DNA of 44,773 nt from Craspedostauros australis (GCA_030167865.1 JALAGF010005320.1:1-44773), one strand, 5' to 3'; shown: positions 4,995 to 33,954, counted from the stretch's first letter. Notes: generated by a model from the sequence alone, not told the origin. Program-made: numbers and translations.

Positions 4995-6569
4995 TTAGAT
5001 ACCGGTTGGCAACGACCGCAGCAACCAAAATCCGGCTGGATCATCATCTTCATCACGTTGCACGCTGATGAAATGCAGCCCGCCCAGAACCTTCTTGCCC
5101 TCCTCGAATGCCGCGCCTTCTTCGCGCTGCACGTCATCCAACCGCGCCAGAAGGTATTCCGTGTCGATGTCGGTCTGCACGATGAGGTTGTTCCTCTTGA
5201 AATCGCAGGTCAAACCCGCCAATTCGGTTCCGGCCATCCAGGAGGCCAAGGCGTCGGGACGCTGAGTCAGGATGACGACGCCCTGCACGAAGGCGTCGGC
5301 GGGGAGCTTGGGATCGATGGGACAGAGGTTGCCGACGCCGATGTTTTCGGAGTCGACGCCACCGCCTGGCAGGAATTCGGCCAGCGGCAGCCCGACGAAG
5401 GCGTACTTCTCGCCTCTCAGCGCATCCGGGAGCTTGGAGGGCGTGCGGATATCCAGGAAGGATGGTCGTGCGGTGGATGCGGCCATGGATTGGCGGTAGC
5501 TGCACGTGAAGTTGCGTTGTGTTGATTTGCGTGTGTTTCGCGGAGAATGATTGCAAAATGAAATATTGAATACACCCCAGATAGGTACGCCAACGATCAC
5601 ATTTGGTTGCCGAAGAAAGGCAAAGACAAAGAAAAGGATGGTAACGAAGTATGAAGGAATGAGAGACCCATGTTCGAATTGGATAACAGGAATAAAAATC
5701 AGGCGATGCCGAAGATGCTGTTGTGAAAATCACAACTTCCAGTTCTCTCTCCCTCTCCATCTTCCTTCTCGTCTTTGTCCATTTTCATCTCCACCTCGGA
5801 ATTCATGTATGCATTCCTTGATGGAAATGCATTGCTGTTGAGTTCGATACCAAGGAACCACATCCTCGAGATACGTAGCTCAGGCCACATTTTGGCAACA
5901 CTCGAGTTCAGCCATACCACAATCCACCATATTAGTACTACCCCATACACACCACGCCGTTGTGCACAAACGAAGCAAAATACGATGGTAGAAATGAACT
6001 CACCCCTCCATCTGAGGGTACACGGAATCGTTGCGCTCCTCCAACCACTGCGCCAAGGAGAAGGTGCATCGGGAGGCACGTCCCACGACATCAATGTCCG
6101 ACAATGCGATGTTGATCATGTTGAACATGGCGCCGCGGAAGAAGCGGACGGTGGACGGCTTGGTGTCGGATCGGTCGATAAGATCCTCCACAACCTTGCG
6201 CAGCTCCTTGGAATTGACCTGGTTGGACGGCAGGGTCTTGACGTATCGGAAGCTGCCGTTGGAGTCCGTTATCAGCACCTCCCATAGCTTCTTGTTGCCC
6301 GTGAGCACCACCGGTCGGCTGTAGCAGTCAATCTCCCAATCCTGCGACGGCGTCTTGCCCTCGACCTTCACCAACTCCTCCGACAGCGGCATCGGGGTGG
6401 ACTGCAGCATCGTCCGTGACGTCAACGACGCCGAGACGGACGATGGCATGTTTGGCTGGAAGGCAGCGACGCCGAGTTTGGCCTGCGACAGGCATCCCAG
6501 CATCATGGCCATCGCAAGCAGGGCCATGGCCGCTGTCCAACGCCGATTCGTCAGCCGCATCTGCATCAT
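4995..6569 (-). CDS. TAB2: Plastid RNA-binding protein, Tab2/ATAB2 family; exons 6569-6004 and 5499-4995 (~356 aa)
   Basis: Tab2 motifs WEIDCYSRPV..KKLWEVLITD, VNSKELR, VRFFRGAMFNMI, WLEER..VYPQMEG, LPDALRGEKYAFV and GLHFISVQ..GFWLL. A GTGAGT...TGCAG intron (6003-5500) joins GG+C TAC in frame. A hydrophobic signal peptide ends at VAA-FQP. Confidence 0.92.
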
Positions 6570-7450
6570 CGATAGAGTTGTGAACGCTTCTGTTGTGGTA
6601 TTGCGCGATGCACGATGCGGGTATTGTTTATCAACAAGGGTGGAGTACACGCCGCGAGTAGAGAAGCACACTTGCCAGGTTGTTGAGTTGTTGAGTTGCT
6701 CGGAGTTGTGCCTTCCGATCTTCGCCAGACGCCTCCTTGTTGCAAACAGAGAGAGAGATCGAGAGATCGAGAGTGCAACAAACCAACGACACACAGAGAA
6801 GGAGCAGAGAGATGGCACACAAGTTGAAATTGGGTTCCAAGTGTGACGTAACGGCAACAAGATCGCGAACATTGGTTCAATCGATCACCACGACTAACTA
6901 AACAAGAATGAAAGCAATCCGTACCACCGTCCGCACGTCATCCGTGCATGATATCTCTGTTTTCGATCACCACGAATTGAACGCAATCAACAACCAACCA
7001 ATCCAACACCGATCCAACCTGAACAAGAAGAGGATCTGCCAACGACGATGGCAACCATCAACAACCACAACAGGAACAACGATCAAGAGAGAGCATCGAA
7101 CAAGGAGACCATCATCACAAGGGAGGACAAGAGACACCAAGAGACATCAAGAGACCATCACCCCATCGGTCGCAGGAGACAATCAAACCAAAGCACCTTT
7201 GAAGGATACAAAAGAAGAAGGCAACAAACAAAAGGTTCATTCATTGCATCCAACGCAAGCGACGAGCACCGGAGTTTTGAAGTCATCTAAATTCCCTCTA
7301 CTTTGCTGCTACGAGTCCCCTTCAATCAAGCACACACCACGGCCGAAGCATCTAGCAAGTCGGCACTTGCATACGACAATCATTGTCTTGGGCATCTATC
7401 CAATCCAATCACCAATAAACTGGCGATCTCACTGATCCGCACATACCACG

Positions 7451-16283: not shown

Positions 16284-19200
16284 TCAACCACTTGGAGCCG
16301 ACGACGTGGATCCGCGCAGTCCCTGTGCCTCGCGGTCGTTGAGGATGTGCTGCAAGCCGCGGTTGTGGATGTACGGTCGCAGCACCTTGGCGTTGATGGG
16401 GTTCCACCAGCAGTGCGTGCACTGGACGATGACATCGAGGTTGGCAGGATTGATGTGCAGGTCGTGCTTCGATCGGTTGTCACGGATCGTGGCGCGGATG
16501 TCATCCTTCATCTCCGTCGTGATGGTGTGCTCGCTGGCGTACATGTGGGTGACCTGCGTCCTCTTCAATCCCCTCGTGAATCTCTCCCACGTCTTGTTCC
16601 TGATGTTGTACAGCTCTCCCACGTTGATGCACCAGATCCTGCAGTTCGGCTGCTGCAATATCTTCAGCAGGTGCATCAGCTGCTTGTCCCGCATGCCAAG
16701 GTTGAAGTTTTGAATGTACAGAGCCTCGCAGTTGGAGTTCTCCTCGAGAGCGTCCAGGGCAGCATCCAGGACGGCGACCGATGCGTTAGGATCGCTGATG
16801 TACTTCTTCATCTTCAGAACCACCATCTCGGGACTGTTGCTGCGGAGCTTCTCGACAAAAGCCTTCATCTGTGGCGAGTCCAGGTGACCTCGTGATGGAT
16901 TGCGCATCGAACGGCGCACCCAATTGCCACCGCAGCAGCCGGCATCGTCCTCGGCAAGGATGGCCTTGATCTGATCGCTCGTCAGCGGCTTGGCGGACTC
17001 CTTGATGCGTTTGCGTTCTGCGCGATCCTTCTGGTACTTCTTGAGCTGGGCTTCGGTCATATTGCTCATCTTGTCCTTCTTCGTCTTCTTCTTGCTCTTC
17101 TTGACTTCGGCGCTTCTTGGAACATCCGCCTGACTCGTTGGAGGTGGTGCTGCCATGGACTTGGACATGGAGCTCGATGTGGTCCCAGGTTTCTTGGACA
17201 CATGGGCAGGTGCAGGCAGTGCCACAGGTGGCGAAGACCGTTGCTGTTTTGTGCGATCGGATGGAGGCAGCGACGTCCTCATGGCCATTTCCCTGGCCTC
17301 CCGCTCTGCACGCATCCTGGCCTTTTTCTTCTTCTTCCTCCTCATCATCTTCTGTTTCCTCATCTCATCTGAGGTTGTTGCACCATCTGCTCCAGCTTCT
17401 GCTCCTGGCATTGGCTGTTCGCGGATAATGTTGTTATTGTCCTTCACGTTCTCAATCGATGGCATCTTGTGTTGCATCGAAGCCTCGGAATCTCGCTTTA
17501 GCTTCTTGAGCGACATTCGAAGATGCAGGGTTGGGATCTTGCGCTGTGGTTGTGGCTGTTCCTGATCTCGTGCCTGCTGATCTCGTGCCTGGCGAGGTTC
17601 CTGCGCAGGTCGCTCATGCTGTCGTCGGTGTGACATGTCACGCTGCACCGCCTCCATATCTTCTTGACCGGACGATGATGTCGACGATGACAGTGACGAC
17701 GGCGACGTTTGCGGAGCTGTGCCCTTCTTGTGTGCGATCTTGGGTGGCGTAATGCCAAACATCTTTGATGCCCAATTCATCAGTTCCTCCTCGTCCGTGT
17801 CCGAGTCAGAGCTGCTGGACGAGGATGACGGCCAGGAAGCGTTCGAAGAATTCGAGGCGACAGAGTTGTCATCGTTGTCATCAAGATGCGCATGCTTTCC
17901 GGCGTGTCCATTCGCCGAGTCTTCATCGCGGACAATATGCTGATGAGCGGCATCGCCAGAATCATCAGCATCGTTTGACGTCGCCAATGCAGAAGTACGT
18001 GTCGGCGTGGACGTTGCCGAGTCAGTTGCAGCCTCAATCCTGCCGCATCTCACATTGTTATCGTCGAAGTCCCGACGGACGATCACAGATGGGACTTGAT
18101 GAGCAACGACCGGTGCTGTCGGCTCATTGGTCGTGCATGCAGTCAACGAGTCTTCCGTCGCAACGTCGGGCGAAGTGGCCAAGAACGACATCGCTTGATG
18201 CTTGTCGTAGTTGCCCTGGTTGGCATCACTCGTCCTCTTCTGCTTGGTGACAATCGCGGATGGGACTTTCATGGGTAGCGAGGTGTCGTTGGTCAAATCC
18301 GCGTTCGAGTTGCGGTGGTTTGAACTCGAACTCACGTTTGGCCTTGTGTCCGCTGGTCTTGGCTTGACTTGCTTGGGCAACCGGCTGATCGTGCTCGTGC
18401 TCGTGCCGAGACTTCGGCTGGCATGTTCGACCATGTCCCGCAGGTTCGATGCTGTGGATCCTCCCTCCGAGTCAGTCACGGCCCTGTTGTTGAACTGCGC
18501 CGACGACAATGACGCCAATGTCGATGAGGTGGACTGCTTGGTGGAGACTGATGCGGAGCCACTGTTCGCAGTGGCATCCACCTTGTCAGCCGTCGACTTG
18601 GGTGAGATCTTTGCCATCGGACGACTTCCCGAAGTTGCAGCCTTCCTGTCCACGGGCGTCTTTTTCAGTTTCAGCTTCAACCACTCGGAGGGAACAGGCA
18701 AGAGGGTCGATTCGGACTGATCCCTTTCGTTTGTTGCTGCCGCTGCACACTCTTGCGTCGCTGCATTTGGTGGCGTCGACGGTGGCAACTTTGTCTGTCT
18801 TTCAGTGCCCTCCTTTTGCTGTCGCTGGTCGCTGCCATGATCACTTTTGCTTGATGGAATATTGCGATGAGACGATCGCAAGTCACCGTCGTCTTGACGC
18901 CATCTCTTCCGTGGTGGCGAAGAGCAGCGGCCATGATCTTCATCTTGGGACATTGGACGAGCGATGTCGTTGTTCTTGGTGTAGTCGGCGTTTGGGTTGA
19001 ATGAGTTCTCCGGCGATAACTGATGCGTCATGGACACTGAATCGGGGTCTGTTCCAACACCAAATGCAGGTACCACCTCGTGGTACGGCTTGTTGGATGA
19101 GGAAGACCGTTGATGATCAAGATCATGGTGGCGACGGTGTTCGTGTTCATGTTGATGTCGGCCATGATCGTGCCCTTCGCCCTGCCTGTCACCGTAATAG

Positions 19201-21965
19201 CCTCGACGATCTGAACTGTGCATGCTTGCGTGGACGACCTCAGCATCGAAAGGCTGAGCAACTTCATCATCGTGCATGTCTCGGCGTTGATCGTTCATGT
19301 GCGGGTCGTTTTGCCTATCGAAAGGACGACGGTCGTGATTGTTGTGCATCTCTTGGAACTCGAAGTCACGTCCCTTATCAGGGCCATCCATAGCATCGTC
19401 ACCATGGCTCGTCCTGGGTCCATCCGGGTGGTTGGATGCAAAGGGCGGGTAAACGTTCTCGTGGAAATCACCGTAGTGGGCATCCTCCTGACGGTCTCGA
19501 TGCAGATTGGGTTCATTGCATCTGTCGGCCGACATGCGAGGTGAGCGGGCAATGTTGTACCCTCGGGGTGGGCCTGAAGGACGGCGAGCATTGCCCATCA
19601 TGGGATCCTGGCCGCGTGGAATCCTCGAACCCATCTGAGCGTTACCATGATCAAAGTTGTTAGCGTTGACGCTGGGGTTCATCGTTCTGTCACGCATCAT
19701 GTCGCCACCGTCTCGCCCATATCCTCGACGCTCGCGGAAGTCCTGCGGCGACGCCATGGAGCCACGAGAGTTAGGGCTATTGAAGTTGCGATCATTCTGG
19801 TACCCGCCTTGCATTCTCTGAGGGAATGGCTCCCGAGGCTGGTTTGGATCACGCTCTCCTTCACGACGTCCATCGAATGGTCCTGGTTGTCGGAAGCGAT
19901 GTTGGCGCTGGAACTGTTGCTGTTGTTGGTGCGGACGGTGGTGCGTGCGACGCGGGAATCGCTGTGCGTTGCCGTTGTGAATGTCACCGTTGTTGCGGGG
20001 AGAGTGGAAAGGACGATGGTTCTTCTCATTGTTTCCCATGTTGACGTTTCCGGGACCACGCTGGCGATGAAGGTGCTGAGGCATGCCGCGTTGAAAGTTG
20101 CCACGCTGATTGCCTTGGGGACGACGATCATTGGATGGAGGGCGCTCTCTTCGCCAACCGTCGTTGCCACCGCCGTGATGTCTTCCATAGGGCCCGCCAT
20201 TGCCGCCACCGTTCCAATTGCCATGTGGTCCAGCATTGGCTGTGTTGCGTTGTCTTTGCTGCTGCTGCTGTTGTTGATGGTGAAAGTCTCGTTCACCATC
20301 GCGGCGGTACCGTTGAAACTCACCGGACCCATCGCTGAAGTTTTTGTCGGTATTGCCATGTGGGTTGCGGTCGACGAAAGGAACGCCTGCGTCATGTGGG
20401 ACATCCTCAGTGAACTTTGGCGGAAGACCACCACGTGGGGCTTCGGGATTCACGTAGTAGTTGCGACACATGTTGTTTTGGTTGAGATCTTCTTCGCTTC
20501 GTTGCGCACCCTTGCTGTCGTTGTTGCTGTGGTTGTTGCTGTGGTTGTTGTCCTCTGTGTTTGGCCTCTCGGCTTGGAAGTCGCGATGACTATCCGAGTC
20601 TCTCCTGCTGTCGCTGTTGCTGTTGCGTTGGTGGCTGCTGCTGTTGTTGTTTTCAGTCACTGATTGCCTACGAGTAGTCGCAGGAGCGTCGCGCGCAAAC
20701 GGTGGTCTTGTGTTGGTGTTGGTATTCGTGGTTGCGAAGGAGGCTGCCTCTGTTCCAAGACGTCGACGGTGTTGGCTGGGCGAGTCAGGTGCAGATGTGT
20801 GATGTTGGTGGTGGTGTTGCTGTTGGTTGTGATGACGATGTGCGCGATGGTGGTGAACGTTGTTCTGTCTACTCGTATCGTGAAGATCTTTGTTGTGTGA
20901 GATCTGGTTGCCATCAAAGCTGCTGTTGCGATTTGAGCCAGCGTCACGGCCGTTTCTGTTGTTCCAGTTGTCGCTGTTATGGCTGCTGCTGTTGCTGCTG
21001 TGCTGCGGCTGGGAAGAGCGGCGACGAGAAAAGTGTTTGTGGTGGGGTTCGGATTGGTGCGTGGGAAACGACTCGTGGTGGTGGTGGTTGGTGGCACGAG
21101 CATGTCTCCCGTTCGGCTGCGAATGCGGACGTTCCCATCTTTGCTGCTGGTCTGGATGAGTTTGTGTGTACACGTCCCCCTTCTCCGTGGGGTTGTGGCT
21201 GTGGCTGCCGTTGTGCGTTTCCTCGCTTTGCATCCGACTCGTATCGCGCGAGGCCTGATCAACGCTCCACCGGCGTTCCGCACTCTGGCTGCGAAAAGGC
21301 ATGCGAGGTCGTTTGCGTGCGCTGCCGATGCCGCGCCCTTCTCCATTGAATTCATTTTGATGCGATTGTTTCGGATCATCATTCCCATGAGGTTGCTGGT
21401 GACCTTGACGCGGTTGGGAATCACCGCTGTTATCACCACCCACGGCGCCACCTATCCGATTGACGTAGCCTCTGCCGGATTGATCAGACGTGGACGAGGT
21501 TCCCGGAGCAGCGGTTTCATCCAATTCACCATCTTCATCGGACGATGGGGCGTCTTTCATGGCATCCGCATTGCGATCATGAGCACCAGGACGAGAGTCT
21601 GCTTGCACTGCGACAGGGTTTGAACTGCGCCTGGCGGAGTCGACGTCAGCATCATGATTGAGCGGACGGTGAGGACCCTCGTCCGCTAGCGATGATGACG
21701 ACGATGATGATTGTTCACGATTTCGCACATCCTCGTGGACTCTGTTGCTGCCGTTGATTTCAGGAGCATGCCGTGGCTGTTGTTGTTGTTGCTGCTGGTA
21801 ATGGTGCGGTCTGTGCTGATCACTATGATGATGATGCTGATGATGGTGATTGCGGTATTGCCTGTTCTTCTTGCTGCCACCTCTCTTCCTTCCAAACTTG
21901 GTCCCTCTTCGTCCGTTCCTTGTGTCTGCGATTGGGCCTTGTCGCCTCACCAGCGATGTCGTCAT
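16284..21965 (-). CDS. Very large (~1893 aa) mostly disordered protein with a C-terminal globular, RNI/LRR-like domain
   Basis: 5.7-kb uninterrupted ORF; first ATG at 21965. About 1680 aa are H/N/Q/R/G/S-rich. The last ~200 aa are hydrophobic-patterned (WVRRS..VLKMKKY..NCEALYIQNF..IWCINVGE..VTHMYASE..CWWNP). Confidence 0.85.
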   Translation of the reverse strand: MTTSLVRRQGPIADTRNGRRGTKFGRKRGGSKKNRQYRNHHHQHHHHSDQHRPHHYQQQQQQQPRHAPEINGSNRVHEDVRNREQSSSSSSSLADEGPHRPLNHDADVDSARRSSNPVAVQADSRPGAHDRNADAMKDAPSSDEDGELDETAAPGTSSTSDQSGRGYVNRIGGAVGGDNSGDSQPRQGHQQPHGNDDPKQSHQNEFNGEGRGIGSARKRPRMPFRSQSAERRWSVDQASRDTSRMQSEETHNGSHSHNPTEKGDVYTQTHPDQQQRWERPHSQPNGRHARATNHHHHESFPTHQSEPHHKHFSRRRSSQPQHSSNSSSHNSDNWNNRNGRDAGSNRNSSFDGNQISHNKDLHDTSRQNNVHHHRAHRHHNQQQHHHQHHTSAPDSPSQHRRRLGTEAASFATTNTNTNTRPPFARDAPATTRRQSVTENNNSSSHQRNSNSDSRRDSDSHRDFQAERPNTEDNNHSNNHSNNDSKGAQRSEEDLNQNNMCRNYYVNPEAPRGGLPPKFTEDVPHDAGVPFVDRNPHGNTDKNFSDGSGEFQRYRRDGERDFHHQQQQQQQRQRNTANAGPHGNWNGGGNGGPYGRHHGGGNDGWRRERPPSNDRRPQGNQRGNFQRGMPQHLHRQRGPGNVNMGNNEKNHRPFHSPRNNGDIHNGNAQRFPRRTHHRPHQQQQQFQRQHRFRQPGPFDGRREGERDPNQPREPFPQRMQGGYQNDRNFNSPNSRGSMASPQDFRERRGYGRDGGDMMRDRTMNPSVNANNFDHGNAQMGSRIPRGQDPMMGNARRPSGPPRGYNIARSPRMSADRCNEPNLHRDRQEDAHYGDFHENVYPPFASNHPDGPRTSHGDDAMDGPDKGRDFEFQEMHNNHDRRPFDRQNDPHMNDQRRDMHDDEVAQPFDAEVVHASMHSSDRRGYYGDRQGEGHDHGRHQHEHEHRRHHDLDHQRSSSSNKPYHEVVPAFGVGTDPDSVSMTHQLSPENSFNPNADYTKNNDIARPMSQDEDHGRCSSPPRKRWRQDDGDLRSSHRNIPSSKSDHGSDQRQQKEGTERQTKLPPSTPPNAATQECAAAATNERDQSESTLLPVPSEWLKLKLKKTPVDRKAATSGSRPMAKISPKSTADKVDATANSGSASVSTKQSTSSTLASLSSAQFNNRAVTDSEGGSTASNLRDMVEHASRSLGTSTSTISRLPKQVKPRPADTRPNVSSSSNHRNSNADLTNDTSLPMKVPSAIVTKQKRTSDANQGNYDKHQAMSFLATSPDVATEDSLTACTTNEPTAPVVAHQVPSVIVRRDFDDNNVRCGRIEAATDSATSTPTRTSALATSNDADDSGDAAHQHIVRDEDSANGHAGKHAHLDDNDDNSVASNSSNASWPSSSSSSSDSDTDEEELMNWASKMFGITPPKIAHKKGTAPQTSPSSLSSSTSSSGQEDMEAVQRDMSHRRQHERPAQEPRQARDQQARDQEQPQPQRKIPTLHLRMSLKKLKRDSEASMQHKMPSIENVKDNNNIIREQPMPGAEAGADGATTSDEMRKQKMMRRKKKKKARMRAEREAREMAMRTSLPPSDRTKQQRSSPPVALPAPAHVSKKPGTTSSSMSKSMAAPPPTSQADVPRSAEVKKSKKKTKKDKMSNMTEAQLKKYQKDRAERKRIKESAKPLTSDQIKAILAEDDAGCCGGNWVRRSMRNPSRGHLDSPQMKAFVEKLRSNSPEMVVLKMKKYISDPNASVAVLDAALDALEENSNCEALYIQNFNLGMRDKQLMHLLKILQQPNCRIWCINVGELYNIRNKTWERFTRGLKRTQVTHMYASEHTITTEMKDDIRATIRDNRSKHDLHINPANLDVIVQCTHCWWNPINAKVLRPYIHNRGLQHILNDREAQGLRGSTSSAPSG

Positions 21966-26196: not shown

Positions 26197-26983
26197 TGTC
26201 GAGATGTACATGTGAGTATACGTCAAGATGTACGTGTATATGTGCATCGTTCACCCGCTATTCTCTCATATGCACTTGGACGGTATAACTACACTCGTGT
26301 CAATAGTATGCTGTGATTCGTCAGAATTACAGGGGAAATGGAACACACGAAAAGGNNNNNNNNNNNNNNNNNNNNNNNNNNNNNNNNNNNNNNNNNNNNN
26401 NNNNNNNNNNNNNNNNNNNNNNNNNNNNNNNNNNNNNNNNNNNNNNNNNNNNNNNNNNNNNNNNNNNNNNNNNNNNNNNNNNNNNNNNNNNNNNNNNNNN
26501 NNNNNNNNNNNNNNNNNNNNNNNNNNNNNNNNNNNNNNNNNNNNNNNNNNNNNNACATGTCACCACGTCGACAGCTGTCTCCAAGTCAGAGCAGGAGGCG
26601 AAGATGCAATGACCCATGAAGATCATGGATACTGAAGGCGAACTTCAAATGGTAAGTACTCATGGAGTAGGAACCAGTACTGAACGAACGGAGTGTCGAA
26701 TGCAGAGCACGCATCGAATACGAAGTATCGTGTAGTGTGAGCACATGATGTTGAGAGAGAGAGTGAGAGAGAATACAGAGAGGAGCAAGAGAGGATCTCG
26801 CGTACCGACTCATAGTCAGAGACTGAATCTACGAAACAGATTGAAGCGCCGAGAGCATCGGACAAGAGAACGGGTGTACACCGAGAGCATCGGAGTAGCC
26901 AAGTAATGAAATAGCAAACGAACGACTATCAACCAACACCATCTTCCACGATCGTAGGTTACCGTGAGCGGAACTTGCCAACA
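26197..26983. mobile_element. Probable solo LTR or collapsed LTR retrotransposon
   Basis: Begins TGTCG and ends CCAACA (TG...CA). Flanked on both sides by GTTGAT (26191-26196 and 26984-26989). It has an internal 14-bp direct repeat CCGAGAGCATCGGA (26849, 26881) and contains an assembly gap. Confidence 0.5.
26356..26554. other. Assembly gap (N run)
   Basis: Run of n characters. Confidence 1.
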
Positions 26984-27117: not shown

Positions 27118-30100
27118 CTAGCTATTGCTATTTCTATTGCTCTTCCTTTTCTTGTTGGCTCGCTTCCATTTGCGGAACGTTTCGAGATCGTACTTGGCCT
27201 TGGCTTCCCTCATGGAGACGCCCAGCTCGTCTTCTGTGAATCGCACTTCTGGAAGGTTGCTGTCTGCATCCCACAGATCTTGCACCATCGACAGCCTGTC
27301 TTCGTCGTCTATCCGTGATTCGTGCAGCAATGCCGTTGCGTCATCTCCTCCCGATCCCACGTCTCCATTGATGCTGCCTACATTGATATCGACGGTCAGG
27401 AGCAGCTGCAAACCGACGGCATCGGTCAGGCTCCGCGTCAGCTCCTCGATGCTGTCCATGGCCTTTGGCAGCAACAGCTGCCGCATGCTCAGAGCCGTGT
27501 CGTCATCCATCCATAGGGGACCGTCATGTTGCTGCACTTCCGGCTCGAGCATCGCAGCAGTACCCGCCGCCGCAGTTGGTGTCGTTGATGGCGACGCCTG
27601 TGATGACGAGGATGATCCATCGGCCAATCGTCGCAACACTTCGGCGTACCTCAACGCAGCGTTGCGCTTCTGCGTCAGCGTGCCGACCAAGGTGGCGATG
27701 TCTGCGCGTACGCGATTCAATGCGGTCGCATCCGATGGCGACACGTCCCTAATGCGACCGCTGGTTTTGCGGAGCATGCCGATAGCTTCGGATTGCAGCA
27801 GCTCGAGCAGAATGCGGAACGACGCCAGTTCGTTGGATGGTGCCGTTGATACTGGTAACGAAGGGGAACTTTGCGCACCAGCGTTTCGGGCCACGGCGCT
27901 GGCACCATTCACTCCAGTGCTGCCTTCGTCATTCACGGAACTCATGGGTGTTGAGCGACATGGCGTCAAATTGTCCCAGATCCATTCACGGATGATACCA
28001 CGTTCGTTTGGATGCTGCCACAGGACATGCTCCAACAGCAGGCAGTCGGTCAGATCGATTTGTTGACGTCTGTCGCACAGCGCTGCAATCTTCAGCAAGC
28101 GTCCGGCCTTCACGATGCGTCGATCGCTAATCTCAATGTCATGCAGCGTTTGCAAATGATTCCGCAGATCGCGAATCAGCAGAGCGACGTCCGTTGGTAG
28201 CGTAACGTCACCGAGTGCAGCTTCCACCGATGAGACAACCGACTCGATTCCACCTGGACTGCTGACATGGTTGTTATCCACGCCCGCACCTGTGCCTGTG
28301 CCTGCGTCTGTGCGACCGCTGCCGCTGTCAACGATACTGCCGGAACGCAACGCCAATTGGCAGTCCTCGTCAGAATCGTCGCATGCCGACGTCATGTCTG
28401 GGTTGGACATTGCAAGCAGTTGCAAGATACCTTCGTCCGACACCGGCAGCACCTCCTTGCGCAAGAGGAAACGATCGTACAAAGCATCCAGCTCGTCGCT
28501 CTCGGGAAGCTCATTCGAAGCGCCCACAACGCAGCGGATCGGACAGTCCACCTGCTCACCGTTGTCAAACCGGCGTTCGTTGAGGATGGTGAGCAACGTG
28601 TTGAGGATGGCAGAGTTGGCCTTGAAGATTTCATCCAAGAAAGCGACGGCTGCAGTGGGCAAGAACCCATCGGTCTTGCGCCGGTACTCGTCATTCTCCA
28701 ACGCCTTCAGCGATAGCGGTCCGAAGATTTCCTCGGGTGTTGTGAACCTCGTGAGTAACCTCTGAAAGAAGAAGCCATCGAAGAGGTGCGACAGGCGACG
28801 GCCGAGTTGAGATTTGGCAGTTCCTGGGCATCCCAGCAACAAAATATGCTCGCTGGCGATCGCCGCCAGAACGACCAGTCGCGCCTCTTCTTGCCGCTCG
28901 ATCAATCCCTTGCCAATCAATGCGATAGCTCTTTGTATCTGATGGCGCTGTTCATGGCTGATTCCAGAACGAGAGACCTCATCATCCAACGTGTTCGACG
29001 ACCACTCGCTTTTCTTGATCGTGGCACCGATCTGCGTCTGCAATATCGCTGCTGCGGGCTCCCCGTCGTCTGATCCTGAAGGTGGCTGCGCTGAGATATC
29101 CCCTCCCCGATTGGCATCGAGGCTATCTCTATCCCCACCTCCATCGATACTCACATTGACGTCATCATCCTGCGCGCCATAAGCCTGGCCAATGCCATCA
29201 TCAGTGTAGCCATCATAGGCGTCGAAATCACCATCGTAGTCGTCGCCATCACCATCCCAATTTTTTCGTGACCGAGATCCGGCGTTCTGCTTTTTCTTCT
29301 TGGTCCGCTTGCCGCGACCGCCGCCATCGCCATCGCCATCGCCATCATCATAGTCATTGTACCGTGCCGGCAGGGAGGTTGAAGACCATATGAATGGTCT
29401 GCTGCGCGGTACAAAACCAGCGAGATGAGTACTCGTTGACGGTCTCGATGACCGGCTGCGGCCATTGAAGGTTCCGCGTCCACTTGACGAAGAATGTGTT
29501 GCTGCCAAGCGAGTTGACGGAGAAGTGGCCGCCCTCCCTCTTTGACTCATCGTTGATGACGACCGTGATCCACGAGCTAGGGAAGGGATCACCGTTTCAT
29601 GATCCACCAAGAAATCATGGATGTGGGTGCAGAGCTTTTCCAAGGGAACGGATTCTCTTTTGCCGACCAACAGACCGTGGATCTGTACGGAGCTTGTGTC
29701 CTTGAGAGCATCGAGCCGTTCCATGACATCCCGAGGTACCGGCGGATCTGGTATCTCTCCGTCCGTGATGAGAAGCAAATCGGAAGACGACATCATGTCG
29801 TATTCTCCATCACCAGCCGCCACATCATCGTCACCTCCCGTGTTGCCACGGACCAATCCCATGGCGAACTTGAGAGCGCCGGTGACGTCGGTGCCTCCTC
29901 CGAAGGAATATGACAGAAAGTCGAGCAATCTTGTGATCCCCTCCGGATCTGCGGAGATGATCTCCGATTCCATCACCGATTGAGTTGAGGAAAATGCAAC
30001 AACGTGGCAATCGCGGCCTTGCTTGCTTGCGGTTGAGACGCATTCTAGAACGACTGCCTTGGAGAGACGTTCCCGGATGCCGGACATGGACCATGAAGTG

Positions 30101-31446
30101 TCGAGGCATACGATGATTGGGCCACCAGCAGCGCTCGGCATGCGACGCGAGTGCCGCGACTTGCGCTTGGGGATGCTTGGCACGTCCTTCCATCCTGACA
30201 TCTCATAGCTCAGCAGCTTCCCTTCGGCCTTTTTGGACATGAACAGCCGTCGCAGTGCCGGCGATCCCTTCAGGAGGATTGACTCCGACGGGAGCATCTC
30301 AGTGAGACTCCCCGAACGAGTGATCCCGCTGACCGAATCCCTCATTTGGGAATCGAATTGAGCCCCCATTTCGCCATTCGAATTCAGGCGACGAGGTGCG
30401 AACCGTTCTATCGATGTGCTTTGCTCAGCCGTTGGGCGTCGACCGAGTTCTTTCATCAAGTCCGTGAGTTCTGGCATGTCCGACACGTGCTGCTGCAGAT
30501 CCCGCAACACGGTCCATCCAGAATGACTCCAGACGCCATTCTCGAATCCGAAACTTGACGACTGCTGCGAATTCTCATCATCTTCCATGCCAGCACCTTG
30601 ATGAACATCCAACAGACCGTGTTCGAACCCAAGCAGAGCATCGAGCATTCCGACGCCAGAGATGACACCTGAAAATGCCTCGACAAACTCCATCCGAAGC
30701 GATTCGCCAATGTCTTCGTACAGATCTTCCACAGCACGCTCATGTCTCTCCTGCGAAGAAGAGTCTGCGTCATACCAATACGGCTCATCTTCGTGACAAT
30801 CCACCTCATCAAATTCTTCGTTGGCATCCGCATCGTCTGGTGCCGAGTCTTGGAGGAATTGATCCTCAAGAAATTCCAATTCGTCATCGAACTTTGCGGT
30901 GAGCTGGAGCATGAATCGAAGGACGATCGATATGGTCTCCGGGTGCCGATGCACGAAGCGCGGGAGTTGTGTTGCGACCATCGCATCCGATAACTTCGAA
31001 AGCAACACTTGATTGGACGGCCATGGTTCGCAGTTGGCTGTTTCGAAGTCCTCAGCGGACGCCAGACGACCCTTCAGCAACGCACTGCGCCACACGCCAA
31101 ATCCTTGGCTGGTGTGGAAAATTCCGTTGATGTGATGCGATTGGTCTCCGCTTTCGAGTTCTGCGACCAGCAACGGATCGATCGCAGAAGTTGGGTCTCC
31201 GAGACCGAGAGAGAGCTGCGTTGGCGGCCGCTGCTCTTGAGCCGGTGCCACGGAGGATGCACTTCTGCCAGCGGGCATTTGGTCGCTCGGCACACCCTCT
31301 TGATGCCATCGTTGCGGGAAGCGTGCGTTTGGAAATGCATTGCAGCCGCTTACCAGTAGCGCAGACCAGAGGAGCAATTTGCGTGCTGATTGATGGTGGC
31401 AGCGGCGGCGGCGGTAGCTGTGGTTGTTGTTGCTATTACTTGTCAT
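27118..31446 (-). CDS. Plastid-targeted ViaA-like VWA protein fused to a RavA-like MoxR AAA+ ATPase (~1442 aa)
   Basis: Single uninterrupted ORF with signal peptide LLLWSALLVSGCNA-FP. ViaA-type VWA: GPIIVCLDTSWSM, FLSYSFGGGTD, LLLITDGEI. RavA-type AAA+: GLIERQEEARL, Walker A GCPGTAKS, RLLTRFTTPEEIFGPLS, Walker B AFLDEIFKANSAILNTLLTILNER, GASNELP, ALYDRFLLR, ISDRR. ATG 31446 was chosen for its proximity to the signal peptide; the frame is open to 31632. Confidence 0.9.
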   Translation of the reverse strand: MTSNSNNNHSYRRRRCHHQSARKLLLWSALLVSGCNAFPNARFPQRWHQEGVPSDQMPAGRSASSVAPAQEQRPPTQLSLGLGDPTSAIDPLLVAELESGDQSHHINGIFHTSQGFGVWRSALLKGRLASAEDFETANCEPWPSNQVLLSKLSDAMVATQLPRFVHRHPETISIVLRFMLQLTAKFDDELEFLEDQFLQDSAPDDADANEEFDEVDCHEDEPYWYDADSSSQERHERAVEDLYEDIGESLRMEFVEAFSGVISGVGMLDALLGFEHGLLDVHQGAGMEDDENSQQSSSFGFENGVWSHSGWTVLRDLQQHVSDMPELTDLMKELGRRPTAEQSTSIERFAPRRLNSNGEMGAQFDSQMRDSVSGITRSGSLTEMLPSESILLKGSPALRRLFMSKKAEGKLLSYEMSGWKDVPSIPKRKSRHSRRMPSAAGGPIIVCLDTSWSMSGIRERLSKAVVLECVSTASKQGRDCHVVAFSSTQSVMESEIISADPEGITRLLDFLSYSFGGGTDVTGALKFAMGLVRGNTGGDDDVAAGDGEYDMMSSSDLLLITDGEIPDPPVPRDVMERLDALKDTSSVQIHGLLVGKRESVPLEKLCTHIHDFLVDHETVIPSLARGSRSSSTMSQRGRAATSPSTRLAATHSSSSGRGTFNGRSRSSRPSTSTHLAGFVPRSRPFIWSSTSLPARYNDYDDGDGDGDGGGRGKRTKKKKQNAGSRSRKNWDGDGDDYDGDFDAYDGYTDDGIGQAYGAQDDDVNVSIDGGGDRDSLDANRGGDISAQPPSGSDDGEPAAAILQTQIGATIKKSEWSSNTLDDEVSRSGISHEQRHQIQRAIALIGKGLIERQEEARLVVLAAIASEHILLLGCPGTAKSQLGRRLSHLFDGFFFQRLLTRFTTPEEIFGPLSLKALENDEYRRKTDGFLPTAAVAFLDEIFKANSAILNTLLTILNERRFDNGEQVDCPIRCVVGASNELPESDELDALYDRFLLRKEVLPVSDEGILQLLAMSNPDMTSACDDSDEDCQLALRSGSIVDSGSGRTDAGTGTGAGVDNNHVSSPGGIESVVSSVEAALGDVTLPTDVALLIRDLRNHLQTLHDIEISDRRIVKAGRLLKIAALCDRRQQIDLTDCLLLEHVLWQHPNERGIIREWIWDNLTPCRSTPMSSVNDEGSTGVNGASAVARNAGAQSSPSLPVSTAPSNELASFRILLELLQSEAIGMLRKTSGRIRDVSPSDATALNRVRADIATLVGTLTQKRNAALRYAEVLRRLADGSSSSSQASPSTTPTAAAGTAAMLEPEVQQHDGPLWMDDDTALSMRQLLLPKAMDSIEELTRSLTDAVGLQLLLTVDINVGSINGDVGSGGDDATALLHESRIDDEDRLSMVQDLWDADSNLPEVRFTEDELGVSMREAKAKYDLETFRKWKRANKKRKSNRNSNS

Positions 31447-33954
31447 CTTGCTGTGACAAAGCTGCGGTTGGTGTGGACTACACCGTACGATGCGATGGCT
31501 GTCCTTGTCATCGTCCCCGCCATCACCGCAGAGCTTGTCAAAGTGCCGCTGTATGCTTGACATCCCACATCTCCGTGTCACACGTTGCCAGATCCAATGC
31601 CCTTCTTCCGTCGTCCTTTGTTCTCCCCACATACGTACCTATTTCGCCATTTCGCTTGTTGGGTGCACAAGAAGCACGACAACCAACCAATGTCAACCAG
31701 CAACGCTGACAGAGCTGATGCGAAGAGGGCTTCGCTGTTGATTGGTGTGACGCCAATCAAATAGGAGAACGCGAACAAAATAGGAGTACCTTTGTTCGTA
31801 CAACACATAAAGAGAGTGGAGTTGTTGGGGTGTTTGTTTGGACGGAAACCAAAAAGAGAACCCATCGCCAGCAGAATCAGAAACAATAGCAACAACCAAA
31901 CCCTCGTCCCTGAGAATAGCTCACAGGAGCAAGCCTCTTCACAAGTCCTCAACATGGATCTGCATCATGGACAATGAAGCAAGATGGTCACTGATATAGA
32001 CGGTAGATCTAGGGAGAAAGAGAGAGAGAGATCCACCCTATCTTGACGTCTCAGTCTTTTCCTGTTCATACTACGAGGTGTAAGCGGGCCCCGTCGCCGA
32101 GCACAAGATGGAATCTTCGACTTCAGGGTGACAGAATGCTGCTCTCTCGCATTTGCCCAACAGACCAGTTCCGCACTTGATACCCTCCAGCCACGGAGAC
32201 AGACTGAATCAGAAAGGATCAGGATTCGATTTCTATACGGAGACTGATACTGATGTTTGGGAGTGCATGCACGATAGACGACAACATGCCAAACCCGTCC
32301 TCTTCTCTCTTCATGCAATCTCTTTACTCGTGTTTTGGGGGAGAGAGCGCGCGCGAGCACTGAACCAATCGCTGCGAGTTCTCAGAGTCTTGTCAATGTG
32401 CATACTCTTCGCCGAGACAGTTCAAATACTTGTTTTGTCTTGCATTCTAAAATTTGTAGGTGCTTGCAACCGTCTTCTCTATCAATAGTACCAGTCGGGC
32501 GGCCGCCTCCCTCATCATCCTCGTACCATAGAGTGCATCGTCTTCTTCCCATCAGATCTCGACTGGAGCGAGTTCAAAGATTTGCTCGCGAAGCATATAG
32601 ATGTTACATTTGGAGGAGTGACGAGGCATTTTGGCGGTGGTTGTGGTTGTGGTGATGAGAGGAGAGAGAGAGAGAACAACACAGAGAGTTGGTTTTCTTG
32701 TGCCGTTTTGGATGATCGTGTCTTGGTTGCTCCTCCTCAATCTCGCCTCAGCCACAAAATGAGCAGAAAGTGCGAAGTGTCCAAAAGTCACAAAAACGTC
32801 GCACGTGCGTCGTCCAAGATATCACTCACGAACACCACCTAAGCGCACCGAGACAAAGTCAGCATCTCATCTTATCCTGTCCCTGGCCAAGATGCAATCA
32901 ATGGCCACAACATGTGTGTTTGCTCATCTGCTTACCGTGCATACTCACAGAGTACATAATCGCATCATACCACCACGAGCCAACCCTGAAAGAAGAGTAC
33001 CAATGCATGATGGTTGAGCAGGAGAGTATCCGTAGGTCGTACCGTATTGGCACATCAGTGTCTGTTCGTCCTCGCTTGCGAGAGGAGCCTAATTTGCCGG
33101 AAGTGGAGGAACTCGATCAATTGCAACCGGCGTGCCAACCATCCGTTTCCAGCAACAGGTCACAATCCCTCGATGATGTCTGCGAAACCTCGATAACTTG
33201 GGGGTGAACTCGACGACGAATACGAATAGCCCCTGGGCACACGTCTGATCATGATTAATAACGTTGACATTGTCGAGTACTCCATTTGCTGCAACCAACA
33301 ATTCTTCGCTCACATTCTCCCTCTTCGATCCCTTCTGTGCAACACCAAAACCTGAACTGTGAATGAGATTTTACGCACAGAGACTCGGGTCGAAGCTGTG
33401 CTGGAAGGCAGAGGTAGACCCGCAACCTGCCTCCATCGTTCACCAACTCTGCCACAATGTCTGCCCCTGAGAACTAGGTGTGTGGGCTGAGCTTTCGTAG
33501 TCTCCTGGCATGTTTGGCCCTCGTGCAAATGAGTGTATATGATGTTCAGACCAATCCAGCATTGCACAGAGGAGAAACGGATGTCCCAGGCACAGAGGAG
33601 GAAACGGATGATACGAAGATTGTCTGTGCGTCTCGACCAGAGTATTGGCACTCCACCTTTCTCGATGTACTCGATTCCGCACAACCGAGCTTCGGGAAGA
33701 GACCAACAGCAACAAACATAAGTTGATATCAATACACAGTACTCGTGTTACTCCACTCGACTATACCATACTCCACAAATTGATCACTGAGCACCGGACA
33801 CTGGACACCGAAGCACCCACGCTCACAAATCAAAATTGGCTCAGTGTGCCACAAAAAAAGAAGACAGCAAACACAAACGCAACAGAAACAACCAAAACGG
33901 CAACACACACATCAGCATCATCGACGCCGACAGCAACAGCAGCAGCACCACGCA

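Follow-up and report, generated by a model that had tools for sequence, protein, structure and literature searches.

A 44,773-nucleotide stretch of the genome assembly of the diatom Craspedostauros australis (GCA_030167865.1, JALAGF010005320.1:1-44773; here called the window, with positions counted from its first base) carries on its minus strand a gene, 27118..31446, in which a ViaA-like half is followed in the same polypeptide by a RavA-like half. The locus raises the question of why a diatom would carry as one chain a chaperone system whose partners are separate proteins in Escherichia coli, and where in the cell, and on what, such a chain would act. The answer that we consider probable, while leaving considerable room for others, is that this is a real, conserved diatom nuclear gene for a single-chain MoxR-class chaperone, a ViaA-type adaptor followed by a RavA-type AAA+ ATPase, that works as a plastid remodeller.

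A single uninterrupted gene encodes both modules

An uninterrupted minus-strand open reading frame (ORF) covers 27118..31632 of the window and would give 1504 amino acids (aa) from its first ATG. Its most likely start is the third in-frame ATG, at 31446, from which the coding sequence (27118..31446, minus strand) specifies 1442 aa and a stop. We prefer this start because translation from the upstream ATGs would bury the hydrophobic core of the leader about 85 aa into the chain, unlike in most homologues, where this core lies within the first 30 aa; the in-frame extension with its two further ATGs (31447..31632, minus) is probably 5' untranslated region. The first-pass annotation of this DNA, made from the sequence alone, had used the same start, and translation of the minus strand bore out its single frame, which gives 1442 aa. 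From N to C terminus the protein comprises a signal peptide (with predicted cleavage at CNA↓F), a ViaA-like half, a disordered linker of about 200 aa, and a RavA-like AAA+ half. The protein is collinear with homologues of 1150-1330 aa, with up to 96-98% of the query aligned, which is consistent with an intronless gene.

The gene and its domain content are thus confirmed as real, far beyond chance. It is true that the window contains assembly gaps and that a low-complexity linker could keep a frame open, but the idea that two adjacent genes were joined by a chance frame or an assembly error, or that the sequence is a bacterial contaminant, has almost nothing in its favor: the ORF contains no runs of N, the same order and length recur in 185 proteins from independent genomes and transcriptomes, the gene order in prokaryotes is the opposite one, and the neighboring genes (Nop, Tab2-like, DUF829, and DUF6824) are eukaryotic. 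Nor is the protein peculiar to the C. australis genome; it belongs, as an ordinary and conserved member, to a broad family of algal proteins.

Compared with the 1150-1330-aa homologues, the C. australis protein has extra low-complexity inserts at about aa 1015-1070 (between the two AAA+ subdomains), 1170-1205, and 1270-1310, which could be true expansions or short in-frame introns. Its terminal branch in the RavA-module tree measures 0.61, against a median of 0.22.

The RavA-like half retains the catalytic motifs of RavA

The RavA-type MoxR AAA+ module, an alpha/beta subdomain with its lid (aa 825-1165; 27952..28974, minus), carries all the catalytic motifs: Walker A GCPGTAKS (aa 872-879, 28833-28810), Walker B FLDEIF (28641-28624), YDRF (28479-28468), and SDRR (28128-28117). 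In a 110-row alignment, the G, G, T, and K of Walker A, the D and E of Walker B, the sensor 1 N, the R of DRF, and both R residues of SDRR are identical in every row, in full agreement with the earlier claim of an intact ATPase site at these positions. Pfam recognizes bpMoxR (aa 836-1012, 2.7e-58), AAA_5, and AAA_lid_8 (aa 1087-1156), and the best family match by far is the NCBIfam RavA family (aa 835-1004, 1.1e-62). A sequence search of PDB returned E. coli RavA as its sole match (three of three distinct sequences, 1.3e-53).

A structural model of aa 825-1442, built from the same alignment, has a predicted local distance difference test (pLDDT) score of 83.7 and a predicted template modeling score of 0.82. 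The top Foldseek matches are RavA chains (37-38% identity, about 332 columns), and VIA-align superimposes 362 of the 481 residues of E. coli RavA (3nbx) with a Z score of 34.2 and a root mean square deviation of 5.3 (model residues 4..524 on chain residues 3..497); the next family is a Cytophaga MoxR ATPase (Z 23.1), and BchI aligns at Z 19.7. The C-terminal helical bundle (aa 1166-1360; 27367..27951, minus; model helices 381-403, 413-452, and 491-527) aligns with the triple-helical domain of RavA, and its W488 and P503 are common to green-algal proteins. The half thus combines the motif set of the RavA subfamily with its C-terminal triple-helical domain, the alignment running to chain residue 497.

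The first-pass annotation had seen no recognizable LARA domain, the part of E. coli RavA that binds the lysine decarboxylase LdcI and lipids, and the model supports its absence. No LARA-like beta domain follows the lid in the model, where there are only helices, and about 119 residues of 3nbx are left unmatched, which is the pattern expected of LARA loss; we take LARA to be approximately residues 331-437 of E. coli RavA. Pfam is uninformative on this point: neither LARA_dom nor ATPase_RavA_C matches the fusion protein at E<=0.1, and Vibrio RavA likewise has no match to them. LARA may characterize the enterobacterial branch only. The same Vibrio protein matches PF20030 (MoxR-vWA-beta-propeller conflict systems) equally well, at 204.9 bits, and since it is a genuine RavA the conflict-system name carries no functional weight. 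A role in anti-phage defense was considered and rejected, the protein having no propeller domain and no PADLOC match.

The ViaA-like half comprises a whole ViaA

The conserved core of the fusion protein starts at IDPLL (aa 89), with a ViaA-type helical N-terminal domain (aa 89-335; 30442..31182, minus) that is modeled as helices with pLDDT mostly above 90. In an alignment of 89 rows, 31 of them bacterial, columns L39, G42, P45, and W58 of this half are nearly invariant and W227 and G251 are invariant (numbering of the 566-aa first row), and all are common to the bacterial ViaA rows, which argues that a whole ViaA is present and not a VWA domain alone. Next comes a beta-rich conserved middle region (aa 336-440; 30127..30441, minus; LGRRPT...MLPSE...AE.KLLSYE), modeled as strands directly before the VWA fold, in which E304 and L327 are invariant in the 89 rows.

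The VWA domain itself (29572..30126, minus) is supported by Pfam VWA_2 (aa 444-563, 2e-7), by fold matches, and by conservation of its metal ion-dependent adhesion site (MIDAS), which consists of D449, S451, S453, T519, and D562 and is spread over DTSWS (aa 449-453, 30102-30088), GGGTD (aa 516-520, 29901-29887), and ITDGE (aa 560-564, 29769-29755). All 89 rows have the same D, S, S, and D residues, and 86 of them the T, so that the MIDAS described earlier is indeed intact. The NCBIfam ViaA family matches aa 303-535 with ViaA residues 192-413 (7.2e-32). Together with the RavA match, this makes RavA and ViaA the best family matches of the two halves, as first proposed.

Modeled from the 89-row alignment, aa 85-650 have a pLDDT of 85.9 and show the helical N-domain, the beta-rich middle region, and the VWA fold. 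In this model the VWA fold aligns with many VWA domains at Z 11-14, including NorD VWA (Z 11.5) and the Rea1 MIDAS domain (Z 12.3), the alignments to these two extending back to model residues 222-232, in front of the VWA fold. A wide structural search gave matches that were all VWA domains (model residues 259-534), with the helical N-domain barely covered. The half therefore has the C-terminal VWA domain with complete MIDAS that is typical of ViaA and a helical N-domain which, judged by homology, would bind RavA as in E. coli. The conservation of the two active sites indicates that both halves are kept functional.

The linker and the C-terminal tail carry basic patches

Between the two modules lies a charged low-complexity linker of about 200 residues (aa 626-824; 28975..29571, minus), rich in D, G, and S when its composition is computed on aa 640-824. 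The model of the ViaA-like half falls below a pLDDT of 50 at its end, where the linker starts. Although the linker varies among homologues, diatoms retain within it a basic patch (KRTKKKK, 29310-29290) flanked by acidic runs. At the other end of the RavA-like half are extra C-terminal helices and a basic tail (…KYDLETFRKWKRANKKRK; 27121..27366, minus; model helices 557-572 and 597-617) that are conserved in diatoms, including the basic stretch FRKWKRANKKRK at 27142-27177 (minus). In E. coli, lipid binding has been linked to the basic C terminus of ViaA and to the LARA domain of RavA (PMC9489729), and it is tempting to speculate that the basic tail and the linker patch might stand in for LARA and the ViaA tail by binding anionic lipids.

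The nature of the linker also bears on whether the chain stays whole. It could instead be a polyprotein precursor whose linker is cut after import, leaving ViaA-like and RavA-like proteins to work at a bacterial-type ratio, with fusion serving co-import or co-expression; the 1:1 adaptor-to-ATPase stoichiometry that a single chain would impose would then fail. A long, low-complexity, poorly conserved, and predicted disordered linker would suit this explanation, as would the sufficiency of two separate proteins in green algae. We nevertheless regard it as rather improbable, in that no cleavage motif is evident in the linker, the diatom-conserved basic patch flanked by acidic runs suggests that the linker is more than a spacer, and polyprotein precursors are, to our knowledge, not typical of diatoms. 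A further point for cleavage comes from the solved NorQ-NorD complex, in which a single VWA finger fills the pore (PMC13036017).

The leader suggests import into the plastid

The first 37 residues (31336..31446, minus) resemble a signal peptide, with a basic n-region, a hydrophobic core (LLLWSALLVSG, aa 24-34), and predicted cleavage at CNA↓F (aa 35-38); the sequence GCNAFP (aa 34-39) occupies 31347-31330, where a bipartite-type presequence had previously been recognized. A transit-peptide-like segment follows (aa 38-88; 31183..31335, minus) that starts with F, is rich in P, A, Q, S, and R, and is not conserved in sequence. An aromatic residue at position +1 marks import into the diatom plastid proper. 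The leader thus has the parts of an ASAFAP-type presequence, namely a signal peptide, F at +1, and a transit-peptide-like stretch, as judged by a heuristic rule. This rule asks for a 10-residue run with at least seven hydrophobic and no charged residues within the first 60 residues and then, within about 25 residues, [AVSTCGIL]x[AGSC]↓F.

Of 118 fused-length matches, 40 begin with M and carry 70 or more residues ahead of a conserved anchor; the other 78 were excluded before counting because the narrow anchor pattern was absent (as in the window's own protein), because the initial M was missing, or because the stretch ahead of the anchor was shorter than 70 residues. A hydrophobic core followed by xx[AGSC]↓F was found in 31 of these 40 complete homologues, compared with 854 of 8000 shuffled N termini (10.7%) and 37 of 497 internal windows. 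Sites predicted by eye in homologues include VYA↓F, VNA↓F, VEA↓F, GYA↓F, CRA↓F, ISA↓F, and VES↓F. Because this leader recurs far more often than in shuffles, and because the fusion is restricted to algae with red-type complex plastids, these in silico data support plastid targeting of the protein, as the first-pass annotation had suggested.

A signal peptide by itself indicates only entry into the endoplasmic reticulum (ER), and the fused protein might follow the secretory route to end in the ER lumen or the periplastidial compartment, or be secreted, without reaching the stroma or thylakoids. Nine of the 40 complete homologues fail the rule, and aa 38-88 contain some acidic residues and are not conserved. 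Such a destination seems improbable to us all the same. Periplastidial proteins in diatoms are typically without the aromatic residue, whereas F follows the predicted cleavage site in most of the homologues counted; an ATP-dependent AAA+ machine requires a compartment that contains ATP; and the lineages with the fused form have red-type complex plastids in common. The green-algal counterpart, moreover, is listed with chloroplast proteins: the RavA-like Chlamydomonas Cre13.g603225 ("moxR ATPase") appears in Table 1 of PMC8894945, which comprises known or putative chloroplast proteins enriched on plastid ribosomes after 180 min of heat, and it falls there in cluster E with CPN60, CPN20, RAF2, and CDJ1.

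Fused forms in red-type lineages, separate genes in green algae and prokaryotes

A search for fused forms within a length range of 793-2524 aa gave 119 matches, nearly all with VWA and bpMoxR and mostly 36-49% identical to the window's protein. Those with names come from the diatoms Seminavis, Chaetoceros, Pseudo-nitzschia, Cylindrotheca, Nitzschia, Thalassiosira (T. pseudonana orthologue XP_002291615), Cyclotella, and Epithemia and from the synurophyte Mallomonas; cluster look-ups added the dinoflagellates Effrenium and Polarella and a pelagophyte, and one fused cluster also contains a fragment from the haptophyte Diacronema. Both modules are carried by 185 of the 456 proteins fetched, and all 185 are VWA-first, none AAA-first, so the VWA-first single chain noted in C. 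australis is conserved. Several transcriptome ORFs are marked complete, indicating that the fusion is one mRNA in relatives. A wider search of 1.84 billion representatives gave 8539 proteins at E<=0.001, with more long forms among them.

Two members of the ViaA-like and fused clusters stand out, Chlorella vulgaris P0351, of 1080 aa, and Effrenium P0362, which is named "Clp R domain-containing"; longer or differently named members of this kind may be merged gene models or have added domains. A 629-aa "AAA_5-domain" protein of Fragilariopsis was considered as an unfused paralogue and rejected, since it has the diatom-type tail and begins shortly upstream of the AAA+ module, and is thus probably a fusion whose gene model was truncated.

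In green algae, including Chlamydomonas, Volvox, Chlorella, Scenedesmus, Trebouxia, Coccomyxa, Bryopsis, and Cymbomonas, the RavA-like protein stands alone; it is about 550 aa long, is 47-50% identical in its AAA+ module, and has N-terminal extensions of 50-130 residues beyond bacterial RavA. Chlorella vulgaris, Bryopsis, and Botryococcus also have a separate ViaA-like protein of about 620-655 aa that aligns with 73-91% of the ViaA half at 27-31% identity. The two Bryopsis genes apparently lie on one contig, as both list a longest contig of 11,444,927 bases, and their locus tags are about 190 apart.

Prokaryotic relatives were encoded in 582 of 599 candidate stretches. The best 80 of these 582 were examined; they belong mostly to Gammaproteobacteria, Betaproteobacteria, Myxococcota, Planctomycetota, Lujinxingia, and Methanosarcina, and no cyanobacterium is among them. 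At 70 of the 80 loci the RavA-like ORF is closely followed, on its own strand, by a ViaA-like ORF, and at 8 of the remaining 10 less than 1.3 kb of contig is left downstream. As this order, AAA+ and then VWA, is the opposite of that in the fusion, simple operon read-through does not account for the algal gene.

The only AAA-first chain encountered is at a prokaryotic locus, L044:755-3160 (plus strand) on a 5175-bp contig of a gammaproteobacterial metagenome-assembled genome, which has one ORF of 801 aa, with a RavA-like AAA+ at aa 36-310 and a ViaA-like core and VWA at aa 501-794, most of the ViaA N-domain being absent. It may be an AAA-first fusion or an artifact of assembly or frameshift.

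These relatives also bear on the idea that the protein is a CbbQ/CbbO-like activase that acts on Rubisco in diatom plastids. CbbQ/CbbO, which the first-pass annotation had named as a related pair, is likewise a MoxR AAA+ with a VWA-MIDAS adaptor, but red-type Rubisco has its own activase, CbbX, and the nearest prokaryotic relatives of the fusion, among the 80 loci examined, are ravA-viaA operons. Nor are the CbbQ, NorQ, and CbbO families among the Pfam and NCBIfam matches at E<=0.1, where RavA and ViaA are best. The analogy thus found no support, and we regard a Rubisco activase as very improbable, even though RAF2 and chaperonins share a cluster with the RavA-like protein of Chlamydomonas in the table of ribosome interactors under heat (PMC8894945).

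Public databases already contain the algal fusion proteins, which were named automatically, for example as "ATPase RavA" (Seminavis, NCBI) or "VWFA domain-containing protein." We found no literature study of an algal or diatom RavA-ViaA fusion, in a search that did not cover the supplementary tables of diatom proteomics papers, in line with the earlier suggestion that the system may be poorly characterized.

Both halves point to one eukaryotic lineage

All the trees come from quick searches without an outgroup and include several long-branch rows. In the RavA-module tree (111 rows) the window's protein lies within a 13-row diatom clade (support 99), and a branch with support of 100 separates 66 prokaryotes from 38 eukaryotic rows together with 7 long-branch prokaryotes. 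Constraining the 38 eukaryotic rows to group together gave a likelihood 22.8 units better than the free search (approximately unbiased test, p-AU 0.825). The ViaA core tree splits 31 eukaryotic from 61 prokaryotic rows at 100, and when dinoflagellate, pelagophyte, and haptophyte-cluster rows were included, 36 eukaryotic rows were separated from 33 prokaryotic rows, again at 100. In line with one another, the halves point to one eukaryotic lineage of the ViaA-RavA pair, apart from the prokaryotes sampled.

Within the extended ViaA tree there are three groups: ochrophyte/haptophyte fused forms (23 rows, 100), green split forms (8 rows, 98), and dinoflagellate-type fused forms (4 rows, 98). The green group joins the 23-row fused group at only 81, with the dinoflagellate fused forms outside. 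The eukaryotic history is thus compatible with one fusion, with two fusions, or with fission in green algae.

The RavA-like proteins of loci L048, L063, L065 (Methanosarcina), L061, L066, L080 (Oxalobacteraceae) form a long-branch group that, in the RavA-module tree, lies on the side of the eukaryotes. The ViaA-like proteins next to them match the ViaA core only in part, and the group may be a distinct subfamily or a long-branch artifact.

A tethered adaptor may drive remodeling inside the plastid

How might such a chain work? We picture the protein crossing all four membranes of the complex plastid by virtue of its signal peptide and the F at the predicted cleavage site. Once there, the AAA+ halves would form a hexameric ring that hydrolyzes ATP, each subunit holding its ViaA module on the disordered linker of about 200 residues. 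The helical N-domain would dock on the ring, as in E. coli ViaA, and the MIDAS-VWA domain would grip an acidic residue or a metal site of the client; ATP hydrolysis would then pull or twist the adaptor, and the client would be remodeled. The likeliest task would be to mature or repair, at the expense of ATP, a metalloprotein or membrane complex of the plastid.

Parts of this mechanism have precedents. E. coli ViaA consists of a helical N-domain (residues 1-319) and a VWA C-domain; its N-domain is sufficient for RavA binding, LARA being dispensable, and the interaction is weak and nucleotide dependent (PMC9489729). The fusion would convert this weak, transient contact into a permanent tether. 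In NorQ-NorD, a finger of the VWA domain enters the hexamer pore, and the ring remodels the NorD linker (PMC13036017).

Several observations weigh against a plastid remodeler of this type. Neither half reaches the equivalog cutoff of its family, RavA (NF010054) scoring 212.7 bits, far below 681, and ViaA (NF008230) 111.2 bits, far below 500, so that function is not simply transferable from E. coli. The targeting rule is a home-made heuristic and not SignalP or ASAFind, and among the nine of 40 complete homologues that fail it is Cyclotella, with L instead of F at the predicted site (CDG↓L). For Cre13.g603225, the evidence is one line of a proteomics table and not a functional study (PMC8894945). 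No client candidate came from any analysis made here. Finally, six tethered adaptors would misfit the one-finger-per-pore picture of NorQ-NorD; either one adaptor would engage at a time, with five idle, or the chain would be cut after import.

A more far-reaching possibility, which we consider unlikely though deserving of some weight, is that the protein belongs to an ancient, overlooked plastid chaperone system of non-cyanobacterial origin, encoded by two genes in the green lineage and as one VWA-first chain in red-type complex plastids, that builds or repairs a membrane complex containing metal, for instance one of the Fe-S complexes of photosynthesis.

Relationship to known AAA+/VWA systems

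The closest comparison is with RavA-ViaA of E. coli and Vibrio. Over about 332 columns the AAA+ module is 37-38% identical to theirs, the fold is the same and extends to the C-terminal bundle, and the partner likewise combines a helical N-domain with a C-terminal MIDAS-VWA domain. In contrast to the bacterial system, the algal form is one chain with ViaA first and a bipartite plastid-type leader, adds a linker of about 200 aa and a basic C-terminal tail, is without LARA in the model, and, being eukaryotic, falls in a separate tree group with sub-equivalog scores. Because the equivalog scores are missed, LARA appears to be absent, and the eukaryotic group is separate, we class the fusion as a MoxR system of the RavA/ViaA type, without treating it as an orthologue whose function can be carried over. 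Among named relatives that are not fused, the closest are the RavA-like and ViaA-like proteins of green algae (Chlamydomonas Cre13.g603225; Chlorella vulgaris D9Q98_006718), which share the C-terminal helical region and the eukaryotic tree group with the fusion but are encoded by two genes and have N-terminal extensions in place of the signal peptide and F.

NorQ/NorD and CbbQ/CbbO share the principle of an AAA+ ring with a MIDAS-VWA adaptor but appear to belong to a different MoxR subfamily, none of their families being among the Pfam and NCBIfam matches at E<=0.1, and the match of the NorD VWA domain to the model (Z 11.5) is no better than that of generic VWA domains. NorQ and NorD are also separate chains, with one finger in the pore (PMC13036017). 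ChlD/BchD, CobT, midasin/Rea1, and VWA8 resemble the fusion in having an AAA+ module and a MIDAS-VWA domain in one polypeptide with a charged linker. In ChlD, CobT, midasin, and VWA8, however, the AAA+ part comes first, unlike in the VWA-first fusion, whose own feature with respect to the whole set is a RavA-type AAA+ module with all catalytic residues.

Genomic surroundings

The neighbors of the fusion gene in the window are a Tab2-like RNA-binding protein, Nop, a glycosyltransferase-like ORF, DUF6824, 5-formyltetrahydrofolate cyclo-ligase, and DUF829, ordinary eukaryotic genes that are functionally unrelated to the fusion as far as visible. The ORF with a Tab2/Atab2 N-terminal RNA-binding domain (7.7e-32) lies at 6000-6872 (minus); as translation factors for plastid psaB are known from the Tab2/Atab2 family, this ORF may represent a further nuclear gene related to the plastid. 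A 1893-aa ORF at 16284-21965 (minus) has no Pfam match at E<=1e-5 and is overlapped by shorter ORFs on both strands. The runs of N that represent assembly gaps are at 443-969 (527 bases) and 26356-26554 (199 bases). The second lies 564 bases past the stop codon of the fusion and leaves the gene untouched, although at so short a distance it makes the 3' flank incomplete.

Significance

The role of RavA-ViaA in E. coli is debated, with respiratory complexes, membranes, and aminoglycoside uptake all having been proposed. A conserved eukaryotic pair that is apparently located in the plastid offers an independent system in which to ask what RavA-ViaA does, and nature provides it in two states, as separate genes in green algae and as a fusion in diatoms, pelagophytes, synurophytes, and dinoflagellates, the haptophyte fragment also belonging to a fused cluster. 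An adaptor and motor fused 1:1 would conflict with the one-adaptor-per-ring arrangement of NorQ-NorD, which may make the fusion a test case for how MoxR ATPases and VWA adaptors engage. Were the protein part of an ancient plastid chaperone system, as entertained above, its six-adaptor ring would show MoxR machines operating in a new way, and RavA-ViaA function would gain in algae its first tractable eukaryotic model. For the algae themselves, the fusion is a candidate plastid protein-maintenance factor that land plants may lack.

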